Source: a virus (Duplodnaviria; Heunggongvirae; Uroviricota; Caudoviricetes). Taken from it: DNA of 4,394 nucleotides. Location: positions 1 to 4,394 of IMG/VR virus record IMGVR_UViG_2778261085_000005. The stretch is one strand, 5' to 3'. The notes under the pieces are model-generated. The model was not told the origin of the DNA. It did no database searches and worked only from the letters and a program-made list of their open reading frames with translations. The position numbers were made by a program, and so were the translations under genes. This document shows positions 1 to 4,394 of the stretch, piece by piece (positions within the stretch are counted from its first letter, which is position 1; every line of letters begins with the position of its first letter).

Positions 1-49
1 CCTGTTAGGGCGCGGCTGGTAAGAGAGCCTTATAGGCGCATTTGAAAAA

Positions 50-80
50 CCTCCGGCTATGCCGGAGGATATTTATTTTT
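50..80. terminator. Hairpin plus T-tract: intrinsic-terminator-like structure, possibly bidirectional, or a structured cos-region element
   Basis: Perfect inverted repeat CCTCCGGC (50-57) / GCCGGAGG (61-68) with a 3-nt loop TAT (58-60), 8 Watson-Crick pairs of which 6 are G:C. Followed on + by ATATTTATTTTT (69-80) and preceded by TTTGAAAAA (41-49), which gives a U-tract on the - strand as well. Confidence 0.4.
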
Positions 81-86
81 ATGGTG

Positions 87-98
87 TTGATTTTGATT
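87..98. repeat. Perfect tandem hexamer (TTGATT)x2 followed by a T-run; possible protein-binding or DNA-bending site
   Basis: Read directly: TTGATT at 87-92 and again at 93-98, then GTTTTTTGTT (99-108). The minus strand reads AATCAAAATCAA, which contains the AATCAA core of an IHF-like site but not the full WATCAANNNNTTR consensus. Confidence 0.5.
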
Positions 99-173
99 GT
101 TTTTTGTTCATCGCTAACACCGTTTGCCTAAAGTTGTTCGCGAGATGCATGTTTAAAACATTCTGGAGCGGGT

Positions 174-668
174 ATGGATCGAGAGTTAAAAAATCTGACG
201 CTGAATATCAGTCAACTGGCGGCACTGTCAGGTGTACATCGCCAGACTGCTGCGGCAAGGCTGCAAAATCTACCCGTTGCAGGGGGGCATGAAAGCAACC
301 TCAAGCTTTATCGGGTGGTTGATATTGTGTCGGCATTTCTGGCATTGCCACCGCCGGTTGCAGAAGGCGAAATGGACGCGCATGAGCGCAAAGCCTGGTA
401 TCAGTCTGAACGTGAGCGTCTTAAGTTCGAACAGGAAACGGCACAACTCATTCCGGCCAGTGATGTCAGACGGGAGTTTGCCATCTGGGCAAAAGCGGTC
501 GTGCAGGTGCTGGAGACATTACCGGATATTCTGGAACGTGACTGCGGTCTGCAGCCTGCCGCTGTGAGCCGTGTTCAGTCCATTATTGATGATCTGCGCG
601 ATCAGATAGCCCTGCGGGTGACTGAAGCAGGTGCGGATGATGAGGAGGAATTACAGCAGGAGGAGTAA
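174..668 (+). CDS. Phage terminase small subunit, lambda Nu1 family (164 aa)
   Basis: ORF with GGAG (165-168) 5 nt upstream of ATG 174. The N-terminus has a helix-turn-helix-like segment (LTLNISQLAALSGVHRQTAAARLQ) that lines up with the lambda Nu1 N-terminus (KKQLADIFGASIRTIQNWQEQG...GGGKGNEVLYDSAAVIKWY versus ...AGGHESNLKLYRVVDIVSAF). The C-terminal tail is acidic (ADDEEELQQEE). The stop TAA (666-668) overlaps the next start. Position immediately upstream of the large terminase gene fits. Confidence 0.85.
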   Translation: MDRELKNLTLNISQLAALSGVHRQTAAARLQNLPVAGGHESNLKLYRVVDIVSAFLALPPPVAEGEMDAHERKAWYQSERERLKFEQETAQLIPASDVRREFAIWAKAVVQVLETLPDILERDCGLQPAAVSRVQSIIDDLRDQIALRVTEAGADDEEELQQEE

Positions 669-2770
669 TGCTGAATCAGGAAACCGCAAAGGCAGCACGA
701 ACCGATTCAGGTTATATCCTTCGCGCACCGAGACGAATGCGGGTTGCTGATGCCGTTGCTCAGTATATGCGGGTGCCCATGGGGGCAGGGAACTCAGTCC
801 CGTGGGATCCGCTGGTGGCACCGTATGTTATTGAGCCGATGAACTGCCTGGCCTCGCGTGAATACGACGCAGTGATATTTGTTGGCCCGGCACGAACCGG
901 CAAGACTATCGGCCTGATTGACGGCTGGGTGATTTACAACGTGATTTGCGATCCTGCGGATATGCTGATCATTCAGATGACGGAGGAAAAAGCCCGCGAA
1001 CACTCCAAAAAACGACTTGCCAGAACGTTTCGCGTCAGCCCGGAAGTGGTCAGTCGCCTGAGTCCGAACAAAAATGACAACAACGTTTATGACAGAACAT
1101 TCCTTGCTGGCAACTACCTGAAAATCGGCTGGCCGTCAGTCAATATCATGTCCTCATCAGATTATAAATGCGTGGCGCTGACGGATTATGACCGTTTTCC
1201 GGAAGATATTGATGGCGAGGGGGATGCCTTCTCTCTTGCCTCAAAACGTACCACCACATTTATGTCCAGTGGTATGACGCTGGTGGAGAGTTCCCCCGGC
1301 AGGGATGTGAAGGATGTGAAATGGCGACGGACTTCACCGCATGAGGCTCCACCAACCACGGGGATCCTGTCGCTCTATAACCGTGGCGATCGCCGTCGCT
1401 GGTACTGGCCCTGTCCACACTGTGGTGAGTATTTTCAGCCCTGCGGCGATGTGGTTGCTGGTTTCCGTGATATTGCCGATCCCGTGCTGGCAAGTGAGGC
1501 GGCTTATATTCAGTGTCCTTCCTGTTCAGGACGGATTATGCCTGAACAAAAACGTGAGCTGAACGGACGTGGGGTCTGGTTGCGGGATGGTGAATCCATC
1601 AATGCGGATGGTAGTCGTTATGGTGATCCCCGACGCTCACGTATTGCGTCATTCTGGATGGAGGGTCCGGCAGCTGCTTACCAGACACTCTCGCAACTCG
1701 TTTACAAACTGCTTACTGCAGAACAGGAATACGAGACAACCGGAAGTGAAGAAACACTCAAGACGGTTATCAATACCGACTGGGGATTACCTTATCTTCC
1801 CCGCGCCAGCATGGAGCAACGAAAAAGCGAACTGCTTGAACAGCGGGCAGAGCCCGTTCCTCACCGCAGTGTACCGGATGGCGTTAATTTCCTTGCGGCG
1901 ACAGTGGATGTGCAGGCAGGGCGTCATCGCCGTTTTGTGGTTCAGGTAACAGGCTATGGTGGTCGCGGAGAACGCTGGATTATCGACCGTTACAACATCA
2001 CGCAGTCACTGCGCTGTGACAGCAACGGAGAAAGCCTGCGTATTGATCCTGCCGGTTATCCTGAAGACTGGGATGTTCTGCTGACGGATGTTTTTCATAA
2101 AAGCTGGCCGCTGGCTTCTGACCCTTCTCAGCGCATGCGGGTAATGGCAATGGCGGTGGACTCCGGCGGTGAGGACGGGGTCACTGATAATGCCTATAAA
2201 TTCTGGCGTCGTTGCCGTCGTGATGGCCTTGGTAAACGTATTTACCTGTTTAAGGGCGACAGCATCCGGCGCGCAAAACTGATCAGCCGTACATTCCCTG
2301 ATAACACCGGACGAACGGGCCGCCGGGCGCAGGCCGCAGGTGATGTGCCGCTCTGGCTTCTTCAGACGGATGCCCTGAAAGACCGGGTGAATAACGCGTT
2401 ATGGCGTGACTCGCCAGGTCCCGGCTATGTGCATTTCCCTGACTGGCTGGGGAGCTGGTTTTATGACGAACTGACGTATGAAGAACGGAGTAGCGACGGG
2501 AAATGGAGTAAACCTGGGCGTGGTGCCAACGAAGCTTTTGACCTGATGGTGTATGCCGAGGCGCTGGTTATTCTGCATGGGTACGAGAAAATTCAGTGGC
2601 CGGATGCACCGGAATGGGCATGCCGGGAAACCTGGCTGGAATACGTCAGTGACAACACTGAGCAGGCTGTTATGCCGGAACCAGCCCCCCTGCCTGCCAG
2701 AAAAAAGAAAAGAAAAAAAGTGACGCCCGATGAGGATAATCCCTGGGTGACTTCCGGAGGATGGTTATGA
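668..2770 (+). CDS. Phage terminase large subunit, lambda gpA family (700 aa)
   Basis: ATG 668 overlaps the upstream stop (TAATG), with GGAGG just upstream. Canonical P-loop GPARTGKT (884-907). Cys cluster WPCPHCGEYFQPC...QCPSCSG (1412-1525) corresponds to the lambda gpA CPHCGEEQYLKFG...CEHNAC region. The segment NFLAATVDVQAGRHRRFVVQVTGYGGRGERWIIDR (about 1880-1990) resembles lambda gpA AYLTAGIDSQLDRYEMRVWGWGPGEESWLIDR. Long uninterrupted ORF. Confidence 0.95.
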   Translation: MLNQETAKAARTDSGYILRAPRRMRVADAVAQYMRVPMGAGNSVPWDPLVAPYVIEPMNCLASREYDAVIFVGPARTGKTIGLIDGWVIYNVICDPADMLIIQMTEEKAREHSKKRLARTFRVSPEVVSRLSPNKNDNNVYDRTFLAGNYLKIGWPSVNIMSSSDYKCVALTDYDRFPEDIDGEGDAFSLASKRTTTFMSSGMTLVESSPGRDVKDVKWRRTSPHEAPPTTGILSLYNRGDRRRWYWPCPHCGEYFQPCGDVVAGFRDIADPVLASEAAYIQCPSCSGRIMPEQKRELNGRGVWLRDGESINADGSRYGDPRRSRIASFWMEGPAAAYQTLSQLVYKLLTAEQEYETTGSEETLKTVINTDWGLPYLPRASMEQRKSELLEQRAEPVPHRSVPDGVNFLAATVDVQAGRHRRFVVQVTGYGGRGERWIIDRYNITQSLRCDSNGESLRIDPAGYPEDWDVLLTDVFHKSWPLASDPSQRMRVMAMAVDSGGEDGVTDNAYKFWRRCRRDGLGKRIYLFKGDSIRRAKLISRTFPDNTGRTGRRAQAAGDVPLWLLQTDALKDRVNNALWRDSPGPGYVHFPDWLGSWFYDELTYEERSSDGKWSKPGRGANEAFDLMVYAEALVILHGYEKIQWPDAPEWACRETWLEYVSDNTEQAVMPEPAPLPARKKKRKKVTPDEDNPWVTSGGWL
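811..818 (+). other. Chi octamer 5'-GCTGGTGG-3' (RecBCD recombination hotspot of E. coli and relatives) inside the large terminase gene
   Basis: Exact match to GCTGGTGG on the + strand at 811-818. Function as Chi depends on the host being enterobacterial with RecBCD. Confidence 0.5.
1279..1286 (+). other. Second Chi octamer 5'-GCTGGTGG-3', same orientation
   Basis: Exact match to GCTGGTGG on the + strand at 1279-1286. I found no copy of the reverse complement CCACCAGC in the window by eye. Confidence 0.5.
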
Positions 2771-2979: not shown

Positions 2980-4394
2980 TGGCAATTCTTGATGATGTGA
3001 TTGGTGTTTTTTCTCCTGGCTGGAAGGCTGCTAGATTACGCTCGAGGGCATTAATTCGTGCCTATGAGGCTGTAAAACCCACCCGCACACATAAAGCCCG
3101 ACGGGAAAACCGTTCTGCCGACCAGCTCAGTAAGTACGGGGCGGTTTCCCTGCGGGAGCAGGCCCGCTTTCTGGATATCAATCATGACCTGGTTATCGGC
3201 GTTTTTGACAAACTTGAGGAGCGGGTGATAGGTGCAAAAGGGATTATTGTCGAACCCCAGCCATTCCTGAAAAACGGCGGTGTGGCTACAGAGCTGGCAA
3301 TGATTATTCGTCGTTTGTGGGCAGAATGGTCTGTCAGCCCGGATGTTACCGGACAACATACCCGCCCCATACTTGAGCGCCTGCTGTTACGTACCTGGTT
3401 ACGTGATGGTGAAGTGTTTGCCCAGATGGTCAGTGGAACGGGAAGCGGACTGGTGAGGCCTGCCGGTGTACCTTTCTGGCTCGAGGCAATGGAGCCGGAT
3501 TTTGTACCCATGCTCAGTGATGAATCTGCGGGGCTGAATCAGGGAGTTTTTCTGGATGACTGGGGGAGGCCGAAAAAATACCTGGTTTATAAAAATTATC
3601 CGGTCACTGGTCGGCAGGTCGATACCAAAGAGATTGCCGCTGAAAATATGGTGCATCTGAAATTTACCCGCCGTCTTCATCAGACGCGTGGAACATCTAT
3701 GTTGTCAGGTGTGCTGATGCGGATCAGTGCGCTTAAGGAATACGAAGATGCCGAACTGACAGCGGCGCGCGTTGCTGCAGCACTGGGACTGTATATCCGC
3801 AAAGGAGACGGGCAGGATTATGATGAACCCGTGACAAATAAGGATAACGACCGGGAACTGCATATCACCCCAGGTATTATTTATGATGATCTGCGTAAAG
3901 GGGAAGATATTGGCATGATCAAATCCGATCGGCCTAATCCTAATCTTGAAACTTTTCGCAATGGTCAGTTACGTGCAGTGGCGGCGGGAAGCCGCCTGAG
4001 TTTTTCCAGTGCAGCACGTCATTATAACGGTACCTACAGCGCACAGCGGCAGGAGCTGGTCGAATCCACTGATGGTTATCTGATCCTGCAGGATTGCTTT
4101 ATTGGTGCAGTAACACGCCCTGTATACCGGACGTGGCTTAACATGGTTATTGCGGCAGGGCTACTGAAAATTCCGCCGGATGTCGATATGAAAACGTTAT
4201 ATAACGCAACATATTCTGGTCCGGTAATGCCGTGGATCGATCCTGTCAAGGAAGCTGAAGCCTGGAAAATCCAGATCCGAGGTGGGGCGGCGACAGAATC
4301 AGACTGGGTACGCGCCAGTGGTCGTAATCCGGATGATGTCAAACGTCGGCGCAAGGCCGAAATTGATGAAAACCGCAAGCTGGATCTGGTATTT
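2979..4394 (+). CDS. Phage portal protein, lambda gpB family (3' partial; 472 codons in window, no stop before window end)
   Basis: ATG 2979 overlaps the W stop (TGATG), with GAGG (2970-2973) 5 nt upstream. Frame 0 is open from 2979 to the last base of the window, translated by hand; it is absent from the ORF track only because no stop is reached. The segment LRAVAAGSRLSFSSAARHYNGTYSAQRQEL resembles lambda gpB LRYIAAGLGVSYEQLSRNYAQMSYSTARAS. Gene order after W matches lambda. Confidence 0.9.
   Translation, partial: MAILDDVIGVFSPGWKAARLRSRALIRAYEAVKPTRTHKARRENRSADQLSKYGAVSLREQARFLDINHDLVIGVFDKLEERVIGAKGIIVEPQPFLKNGGVATELAMIIRRLWAEWSVSPDVTGQHTRPILERLLLRTWLRDGEVFAQMVSGTGSGLVRPAGVPFWLEAMEPDFVPMLSDESAGLNQGVFLDDWGRPKKYLVYKNYPVTGRQVDTKEIAAENMVHLKFTRRLHQTRGTSMLSGVLMRISALKEYEDAELTAARVAAALGLYIRKGDGQDYDEPVTNKDNDRELHITPGIIYDDLRKGEDIGMIKSDRPNPNLETFRNGQLRAVAAGSRLSFSSAARHYNGTYSAQRQELVESTDGYLILQDCFIGAVTRPVYRTWLNMVIAAGLLKIPPDVDMKTLYNATYSGPVMPWIDPVKEAEAWKIQIRGGAATESDWVRASGRNPDDVKRRRKAEIDENRKLDLVF

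Follow-up and report, generated by a model that had tools for sequence, protein, structure and literature searches.

Two Chi octamers in the large terminase gene of a lambda-like prophage: a probable case of selection for top-strand Chi

The way in which Chi sites work, namely by attenuation of RecBCD, nicking and loading of RecA, is established for Chi in general, and the Chi sites of the E. coli chromosome lie mostly within coding DNA, in a Leu-Val frame. The closest described phage systems are the Chi-rich lambda-like phages. Passages of two studies (Bobay 2013, PMC3784561; Zheng et al. 2025, PMC12315714) describe that Chi is over-represented in lambda-like phages without recombinases or RecBCD inhibitors, and that such phages use Chi together with RecBCD for recombination-dependent growth. 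A bias of Chi toward the active orientation, and a RecBCD-enhanced growth of phage LLS, are reported in the second study, which also states that every enteric species tested uses the GCTGGTGG Chi and, citing Kobayashi 1982, that the top-strand orientation is readable from the right cos end (PMC12315714). Wild-type lambda is described there as being without Chi, as the initial annotation of our sequence had it. When Chi is introduced by laboratory mutation into lambda red gam, a single octamer, active in one orientation relative to cos only, improves growth via RecBCD-RecA recombination that yields packageable concatemers (passages of PMC3784561 and PMC12315714). The E. coli chromosome carries about 1008 sites of the same sequence, one per 4.6 kb, which are polar with respect to replication and biased to the leading strand, and lambdoid prophages point in the direction in which the chromosome is replicated (PMC3603311).

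The window, i.e. the whole stretch of 4,394 nt that was analyzed here, is the entire record NNXD01000101.1 of GCA_002486915.1 and contains packaging genes only. An intergenic leader (1..173, + strand) with a hairpin and a T-run at about 48-80, where cos would be expected by analogy with lambda, lies 5' of terS, which encodes a DUF1441 protein (174..668, + strand; Pfam DUF1441, 3e-41) that is annotated as small terminase subunit in mEp460 and phi458. The terL open reading frame (668..2770, + strand) encodes a lambda gpA-type large terminase of 700 amino acids (Pfam GpA_ATPase PF05876, 9e-72; GpA_nuclease PF20454, 1e-84), and it is followed by a W-like gene and a portal gene (PF05136, 6e-79), with overlapping start and stop codons of successive genes. 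This arrangement, in which a portal of the lambda family comes after a large terminase with GpA ATPase and nuclease domains, is that of a lambda-type (gpA) cos packaging module. The nearest phages infect E. coli and are 88% identical at the nucleotide level, and TerL relatives with 95-98% amino acid identity are found in Escherichia; among complete E. coli genomes no full-length match to the window exceeded 93.2%, no record other than the 4394-bp contig itself had an identical TerL protein, and a PDB sequence search with TerL gave no matches. At the left end, the first 78 bases of the window match another lambdoid record with 100% identity, and homology to the mEp460 group extends from about position 72 onward. 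The linear record of mEp460_4F5 starts 188 nt 5' of terS, which corresponds to about window position 5, and the mEp460 record begins at the terS start codon.

The window contains two exact copies of GCTGGTGG, at 811-818 and 1279-1286, both on the + strand and none on the - strand, so that the two co-oriented octamers of the initial annotation are confirmed. Both are part of terL and share the frame xxG-CTG-GTG-Gxx. The first (site A) covers terL codons 48-51 (CCG CTG GTG GCA, P48-L-V-A51), and the second (site B) covers codons 204-207 (ACG CTG GTG GAG, T204-L-V-E207), which encode a near-invariant motif; from its spacing after the Walker A motif GPARTGKT, our guess is that TLVE would precede the coupling (C) motif. 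With the terminase at the left, the octamers are on the top strand and in the orientation that is readable by RecBCD moving from right to left, and the earlier orientation argument was right in its logic. Judged from the gene order and the gpA-type TerL, it is plausible that the octamers lie near the left genome end and that cos and the packaging direction correspond to those of lambda. The window sites resemble those of the Chi-rich lambda-like phages with respect to the octamer, the way in which it points when the terminase genes are taken as reference, and the kind of phage (gpA-type cos terminase, probably an enteric host). They differ in their position, as the arrays described in the published passages occupy the right end, from ori to cos, and the window sites would be at the extreme left, within terL. 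With Chi+ lambda red gam they have in common an octamer in a lambda-type genome, but the latter sites are laboratory mutations in a naturally Chi-less phage, while the terL sites are natural, reside in an essential gene, and are common to many wild relatives.

How unusual are two such octamers in a sequence of this length? The count had initially been regarded, together with the lack of copies on the other strand, as more than chance predicts, and this holds nominally for the count but not for the strand. In 20,000 replicates in which synonymous codons were shuffled gene by gene for the four genes, 0.30 Chi were expected on the + strand and 0.000 on the - strand, and two or more on the + strand were reached with P = 0.03. 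Dinucleotide-preserving shuffles gave a mean of 0.23 Chi for both strands summed, with at least two in 4 of 200 shuffles. With a P of about 0.02-0.03 the count is mildly unusual, in a nominal sense that makes no correction for the motif having been picked post hoc. Synonymous recoding of the window proteins cannot place a Chi on the - strand, and the strand asymmetry is therefore uninformative, which is a caution for scans in general, since a Chi strand bias in coding DNA can be entirely forced by the proteins. The four window proteins permit Chi at just four places, two of which are realized. The near-Chi GCTGGTCG in the portal gene (4055..4062, + strand; codons 359-362, GAG CTG GTC GAA, E-L-V-E) is one synonymous change short of Chi, and an A-G-G stretch in the DUF1441/terS gene (279-286, + strand), with the letters GCAGGGGG, would allow a Chi at the protein level. 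On the level of the window, the octamers could be viewed as neutral and as arising merely because Leu-Val dipeptides are encoded with the codons that enteric bacteria use most, as CTG makes up 67 of 117 Leu codons and GTG 37 of 97 Val codons, and the common frame as well as a P of just 0.03 agree with such a coding coincidence. We nevertheless regard this explanation as rather unlikely, and the first argument against it comes from the phage family.

In 32 non-redundant Enterobacterales loci, top-strand Chi in + strand genes were about 4-6 times more frequent than codon-aware expectations across the family (88 observed vs 20.4 expected upstream, 24 vs 4.0 in terS/terL, 50 vs 10.2 downstream), while bottom-strand Chi in + strand genes of these loci showed no enrichment within or downstream of terL. 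The exact octamer occurred 208 times on the + strand and 32 times on the - strand, and each of its 24 one-mismatch neighbors was found 6-75 times on the + strand, meaning that the top-strand octamer exceeds every neighbor 3- to 35-fold, which speaks against coding coincidence. A maximal-order (M6) Markov expectation for the 640 kb of pooled loci (208 vs 165) was set aside, because Chi also raises the counts of its component 7-mers, so that the model absorbs most of the signal, a power limit that is also raised in a passage of Bobay et al. (PMC3784561); codon-aware expectations and one-mismatch neighbors were used instead. Chi in minus-strand open reading frames of the structural region (10 vs 1.7) were considered as a test of whether orientation is independent of the coding strand, which is unreliable as the greedy caller may take shadow frames that lie opposite real genes. 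In mEp460, three top-strand Chi lie within annotated minus-strand early genes, which is a better orientation test with few cases. The codon-aware numbers indicate that this phage lineage fills its Chi opportunity sites far above the prediction from codon usage, which points to selection for top-strand Chi. The window octamers belong to the published pattern of Chi enrichment in lambda-like phages, to which they add two ordinary examples. We consider it probable that they are genuine enterobacterial Chi sites, located on the packaging-module top strand of an mEp460/cdtI-type lambda-like prophage whose lineage has been selected for top-strand Chi.

The whole-genome survey covered four relatives, in three of which the orientation bias that the initial annotation had proposed to test for was found: mEp460 (16 top-strand and 4 bottom-strand Chi), 4F5 (14 and 3) and PhiR40_1 (18 and 4), all without a Red/Gam homologue, thus have 14-18 top-strand vs 3-4 bottom-strand sites. 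Their Chi are of the Chi-rich type, with at least eight top-strand sites, few bottom-strand sites and a concentration at the right end, where the main array occupies the right 10-12 kb and the right third contains most sites. This is not the case for phi458, which carries exo/bet/gam and has two top-strand Chi and one bottom-strand Chi, the terL pair being its sole top-strand Chi. The relatives that bear the terL sites hence include both Rec types, and the presence of the octamers in the terminase genes of mEp460, phi458, 4F5 and PhiR40_1 speaks against the early suggestion of a host-derived sequence. Chi in lambda-like phages marks the recombination strategy, i.e. the use of host RecBCD or of an own Rec module. 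A phage with Red/Gam should have no use for Chi, and that phi458 nevertheless retains the pair would agree with coding coincidence. In phi458 the pair is probably an idle passenger of module shuffling. The same persistence would also be expected if selection acted on the host chromosome, where top-strand Chi of the prophage would equally be leading-strand Chi and could aid RecBCD repair of collapsed replication forks without any involvement of the phage life cycle. This possibility appears quite improbable to us. The top-strand density of the 32 loci, which is 0.32/kb overall and reaches 0.43/kb in the region upstream of terS, is higher than that of the host, for which one Chi per 4.6 kb is stated with both strands counted (in a passage of PMC12315714), and host-level selection would not predict that the number of Chi depends on the Rec module or a RecBCD inhibitor, as passages of PMC3784561 and PMC12315714 report and as our four genomes agree with. 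In addition, the gain from one more Chi among about 1000 would be minute for the host. In this phage family, the density is tied to the phage's own recombination genes, and RecBCD would enter at a cos end, in contrast to the collapsed fork of the chromosome.

The second argument against coding coincidence comes from site B. In 29 of 58 Enterobacterales TerL genes, this position is an exact Chi, whereas 2.7 would be expected from their own codon usage. Among the 117 conserved tri-codon windows of terL, site B ranks first in silent-site conservation (Poisson P 3e-12, runner-up 3e-7), with codon z-scores of 6.4 for T204 ACG, 5.1 for L205 CTG and 3.3 for V206 GTG. The 5' G of the octamer demands ACG, which is not a preferred Thr codon, and adjacent Thr codons favor ACC. 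The fourfold-site identity of Chi-bearing sequences is 0.34, compared with 0.26 at saturation, and the Chi state is scattered over the TerL tree with at least nine changes. In 12 of 64 close relatives, site B has been lost through silent change, which is a point for coding coincidence, and the cdtI-like clade has ACT CTG GTG; the IMG/VR scan gave mainly close relatives and informs on within-clade loss, not as an independent deep replicate. A further site is found in the portal, where 26 of 78 relatives carry the exact octamer at the invariant ELVE position that is homologous to 4055..4062 of the window. The initial annotation had asked whether the octamers are conserved in relatives beyond the need of the protein, and this is so for site B and not for site A. 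Judged from codon choice, the site B Chi is held at silent positions across many enteric bacteria, a detail that is new beside the published pattern, as the searched passages of PMC3784561 and PMC12315714 contained nothing on individual Chi sites or on silent-site conservation. A terminase Chi would thus be kept at silent positions across genera in which silent sites are near saturation, with the portal holding a second such site, and, if confirmed, this would allow the selection that acts on one Chi site to be measured in a clean natural setting.

Silent-site conservation by itself does not identify the reader of a motif, and the nucleotides of site B could in principle serve a role apart from RecBCD, for instance by folding into an RNA structure, by providing an internal start, or by binding a protein at the level of the terL mRNA or DNA. 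Other strongly constrained silent sites do exist in terL, namely R76 CGA and G697 GGA, the latter being part of the ribosome-binding site that serves the following gene. Such a role is nonetheless very improbable, as the constraint begins and ends with the octamer, the silent sites of G202, E207, S208, S209, P210 and G211 being free, as the unrelated invariant x-L-V-E of the portal bears the same octamer, as the entire family is enriched in exactly this 8-mer on the top strand, and as no Shine-Dalgarno or start context is evident at site B.

How could selection for top-strand Chi operate in the phage? The two octamers arise where Leu-Val of TerL is followed by a codon that begins with G, read as xxG-CTG-GTG-Gxx. 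By analogy with lambda, the terminase would cut cos and remain on the left end, and RecBCD would enter at the free right end, or at any break to the right, unwinding and degrading the DNA leftward. On reaching 5'-GCTGGTGG-3' from its 3' side, its nuclease would be attenuated, a nick introduced, and RecA loaded onto the strand that ends at Chi, and the remaining left-end fragment could then invade another phage copy, thereby generating packageable concatemers. It is by this analogy that we infer an action of RecBCD at the terL sites, its end of entry, and any fitness effect in the phage of the window. As the left-most Chi of the genome, the terL sites would be the last chance in a series whose main array, in relatives without Rec functions, lies far to the right. 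For a RecBCD that enters from the right they are poorly placed, and in the Chi-rich relatives they would rarely be reached by unchanged RecBCD. For the same reason, the protection of linear phage DNA that had been proposed initially fits poorly, as only about 0.8 and 1.3 kb would separate the sites from the left end and a right-entering RecBCD would first cross about 40 kb. That T-L-V-E of terL and E-L-V-E of the portal are positionally conserved and selected as “last-chance” Chi in an Enterobacterales phage packaging strategy is in our view doubtful and unlikely. If it were true, the sites, set on invariant peptide motifs just inside the left end to which the terminase is bound, would secure the survival of a left-end piece that is at least about 1 kb long and has a tail loaded with RecA, whatever became of the remaining cos-cut genome under RecBCD; this piece could invade a circular copy and rebuild a packageable concatemer, and the sites would have a specific function beyond being two members of a statistical excess. 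The presence of site B shows no positive link to how many Chi the right arm has, the association being weakly negative (median 3 vs 5, P = 0.04), which speaks against selection at the terL sites but would reflect compensation if they were last-chance Chi.

Site A is a different case. Its Chi is restricted to the clade with at least 95% amino acid identity in TerL, and elsewhere the position has other amino acids (PDLA, PNLA, ATLT and others), while at two loci PLVA is kept with non-Chi codons. Being limited to one recent clade, site A could be no more than a Leu-Val that happens to be written in common codons, and in this respect coding coincidence agrees with the data. In many close relatives, a further Chi is found about 386 nt 5' of the terL start, inside terS.

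The octamer GCTGGTGG (Chi) is present twice on the + strand of the window, at 811-818 (site A) and at 1279-1286 (site B), and zero times on the - strand, just as the initial annotation had it. Both copies lie in terL and in the same frame, site A as CCG CTG GTG GCA (P48-L-V-A) and site B as ACG CTG GTG GAG (T204-L-V-E). Dinucleotide shuffles gave a mean of 0.23 copies on both strands together and reached two in 4 of 200 cases, and shuffling of synonymous codons within each gene gave an expectation of 0.30 on the + strand, with P = 0.03 for at least two copies. For the - strand, the synonymous shuffle expects exactly 0 copies, as the proteins of the window exclude Chi there, and the strand asymmetry that had been taken for more than chance therefore carries no signal. 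The four proteins permit Chi at four places only: the realised sites A and B, position 279 in terS (A-G-G), and 4055-4062 in the portal gene, where codons 359-362 (GAG CTG GTC GAA, E-L-V-E) form GCTGGTCG, one silent change short of Chi. These window-level statistics fit the view that both octamers are a pure codon coincidence, and the same view fits site A, but it does not fit site B and the family data described in the following.

We compared 80 loci with TerL homologues (one genome per species) and 80 IMG/VR loci, which had been retrieved by peptide patterns that overlap neither site, so that retrieval did not bias the codon choice there. At site A, Chi is restricted to sequences of at least 95% amino acid identity, the remaining relatives have different residues at this position, and two loci with PLVA use other codons; judged from this distribution, site A is young and lineage-specific. 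At site B, T-L-V-E is a nearly invariant motif, and the exact octamer occurs in 29 of 58 Enterobacterales genes versus 2.7 expected from the codon usage of the individual genes (16/32 versus 1.4 after de-replication at 90% amino acid identity). Site B ranks first for over-conservation (Poisson 3e-12; runner-up 3e-7) of the 117 terL windows that consist of three conserved codons. T204 is encoded by ACG in 24 of 33 genes (expected fraction 0.25), while neighboring Thr codons prefer ACC; L205 is CTG in 27/32 and V206 is GTG in 21/33. The flanking silent positions (G202, E207, S208, S209, P210, G211) are evenly mixed, and the silent-site constraint thus maps to the octamer. Fourfold-site identity among Chi-bearing sequences is 34%, versus 26% at saturation, and on the TerL tree, sequences with and without Chi are intermixed and require at least nine changes of state, so that common descent alone is not a sufficient explanation. 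The constraint is nevertheless incomplete: among 64 close relatives, 12 have a silent change that destroys the octamer, and the codons in the cdtI-like clade are ACT CTG GTG.

At the portal motif E-L-V-E, which is invariant, 26 of 78 loci from many enteric genera have the exact octamer, which makes it a second positionally recurrent Chi of the packaging module. That this motif behaves like site B argues for the octamer itself being conserved, and not a local terL-specific element. A reading of the site B nucleotides by a factor other than RecBCD is unlikely, because the constraint stops at the octamer edges and the same octamer recurs at this unrelated L-V-E site. A further top-strand Chi recurs in terL at offset +1310, in the same frame, in nine loci of several genera (L007, L011, L017, L031, L032, L037, L040, L043, L049); the window has no Chi at the equivalent position (~1978).

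Across 640 kb from 32 non-redundant Enterobacterales loci, the exact octamer was counted 208 times on the top strand, i.e. the + strand with the terminase genes placed at the left, against 32 on the bottom strand; the 24 one-mismatch neighbors occur 6-75 times each on the top strand. A codon-aware expectation for top-strand Chi within + strand genes gave 88 observed versus 20.4 expected upstream of terS (observed/expected 4.3), 24 versus 4.0 in terS/terL (6.1) and 50 versus 10.2 downstream (4.9), and the window ratio of 2 versus 0.30 is the same. In + strand genes of this set, bottom-strand Chi shows no enrichment either within terL or downstream of it. Site B and the family-wide ratios indicate selection, which the initial annotation was right to suspect, whereas the origin from host-derived sequence that it proposed is wrong. 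Two types can be told apart among the complete genomes that carry this terL. mEp460, 4F5 and PhiR40_1 have 16, 14 and 18 top-strand and 4, 3 and 4 bottom-strand Chi, respectively, mostly in the right third, and no Red/Gam homologue, and mEp460 and 4F5 are Chi-free from the terL pair to ~21-23 kb. phi458 has lambda-like exo, bet and gam, one bottom-strand and two top-strand Chi, and the latter are the terL sites. In this Red/Gam background, the pair is most simply regarded as passengers that were acquired together with the head module. Loci with site B have, if anything, fewer Chi in the right arm (median 3 versus 5, P = 0.04, no phylogenetic correction), which gives no support to simple co-selection with the array and weakly hints at compensation.

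RecBCD that moves leftward from a duplex end recognizes top-strand GCTGGTGG, cuts back its degradation and loads RecA, and in lambda-type phages without Gam, the Chi/RecBCD recombination yields the concatemers required for packaging. The orientation of the two copies agrees with an approach from the presumed right end, and the orientation argument of the initial annotation is right. The terL pair would be the left-most Chi, with the presumed left end ~0.8 and ~1.3 kb away, a position that poorly matches the suggested protection of linear DNA. In Chi-rich relatives, only a RecBCD that had passed over a dozen earlier sites, or had started from a break within the structural region, would reach the pair, and the terminase-bound left-end fragment would then be preserved for strand invasion. 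Alternatively, selection could act in the host on leading-strand Chi, which is compatible with the orientation, as 98% of lambdoid prophages share the orientation of replication (PMC3603311), but this leaves unexplained why phage Chi density exceeds that of the host and depends on phage Rec genes. Top-strand Chi also lie within or beside early-left genes with a minus-strand annotation (mEp460, 23104, 26021 and 28699; 4F5, 21537 and 24453), and these few cases suggest that the orientation follows the genome (cos) and not the coding strand in these two relatives without Rec genes.

Features of this kind have been described before. Bobay, Touchon and Rocha (2013) describe Chi as over-represented in lambda-like phages without recombinases or RecBCD inhibitors, concentrated between ori and packaging site, and as avoided by Gam/Abc2 phages (PMC3784561). 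The more detailed account by Zheng, Casjens, Davidson, Amundsen and Smith (2025) reports at least eight active-orientation Chi, clustered near the right end, in 62 of 68 Rec-less enteric lambdoids, better growth of phage LLS with RecBCD, a left end occluded by terminase with RecBCD entry at the right, Chi use by all enteric species tested, and shuffling of Chi-bearing and Chi-free modules among phages (PMC12315714). mEp460, 4F5 and PhiR40_1 resemble these Chi-rich lambdoids. The passages searched in both papers contain nothing on individual terL or portal Chi sites or their silent-site conservation (PMC3784561, PMC12315714). Conservation of a Chi octamer at silent positions in invariant motifs of terminase and portal, seen across Enterobacterales, adds a testable detail of modest novelty.

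Site B Chi is absent from every Pasteurellaceae relative in the TerL locus set. Two Aggregatibacter-like loci (L067, L071) have ACG ATG GTG GAA (T-M-V-E) at codons 204-207, i.e. GATGGTGG, which would fit the Haemophilus Chi consensus, GNTGGTGG; other Pasteurellaceae loci have ACA CTT GTA at 204-206.

The window is the complete contig NNXD01000101.1 (4394 bp, assembly GCA_002486915.1), with four co-directional + strand genes and start/stop overlaps between successive ones: terS (174-668), a DUF1441 protein annotated in relatives as small terminase subunit, the lambda gpA-type terL (668-2770; GpA_ATPase 9e-72, GpA_nuclease 1e-84), a W-like protein of 70 aa (2767-2979), and, from 2979 to the window end, the N-terminal 472 residues of a lambda-family portal. 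As the nearest phages are the E. coli lambda-like mEp460 group (phi458, mEp460, Ayreon, 4F5; 88-89% nucleotide identity; cdtI is more distant, 79%), and with best matches of only 93% in complete E. coli genomes and 97% in an IMG/VR contig (window 72-2640), the host is, by these similarities, most probably an enteric bacterium resembling Escherichia.

The strongest silent-site conservation in terL is found at R76 and G697. R76 (893-895, in the Walker A GPARTGKT) keeps the rare codon CGA in 76% of 33 non-redundant Enterobacterales genes (expected 12%, z ~12). G697 (2756-2758) is GGA in 84% of relatives (expected 13%) and sits in GGAGGA (region 2755-2770), just 5' of the next ATG (2767), and this stretch within the 3' end of terL most likely serves the W-like gene as its ribosome-binding site; terL stop and W-like start overlap as ATGA. 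The nearby purine run AGAAAAAAGAAAAGAAAAAAAG (2699-2720; R-K-K-K-R-K-K) is rich in homopolymers and a possible slippage or sequencing-error hazard. At the other end, window 1-78 is 100% identical to another lambdoid record (Lambda_ev058) and mEp460-group homology starts at ~72, which indicates a mosaic joint just upstream of terS, at a hairpin, CCTCCGGC TAT GCCGGAGG, followed by a T-rich run (~50-80). The linear 4F5 record has its end/start point at the equivalent of window position ~5, and the contig may therefore start close to cos.
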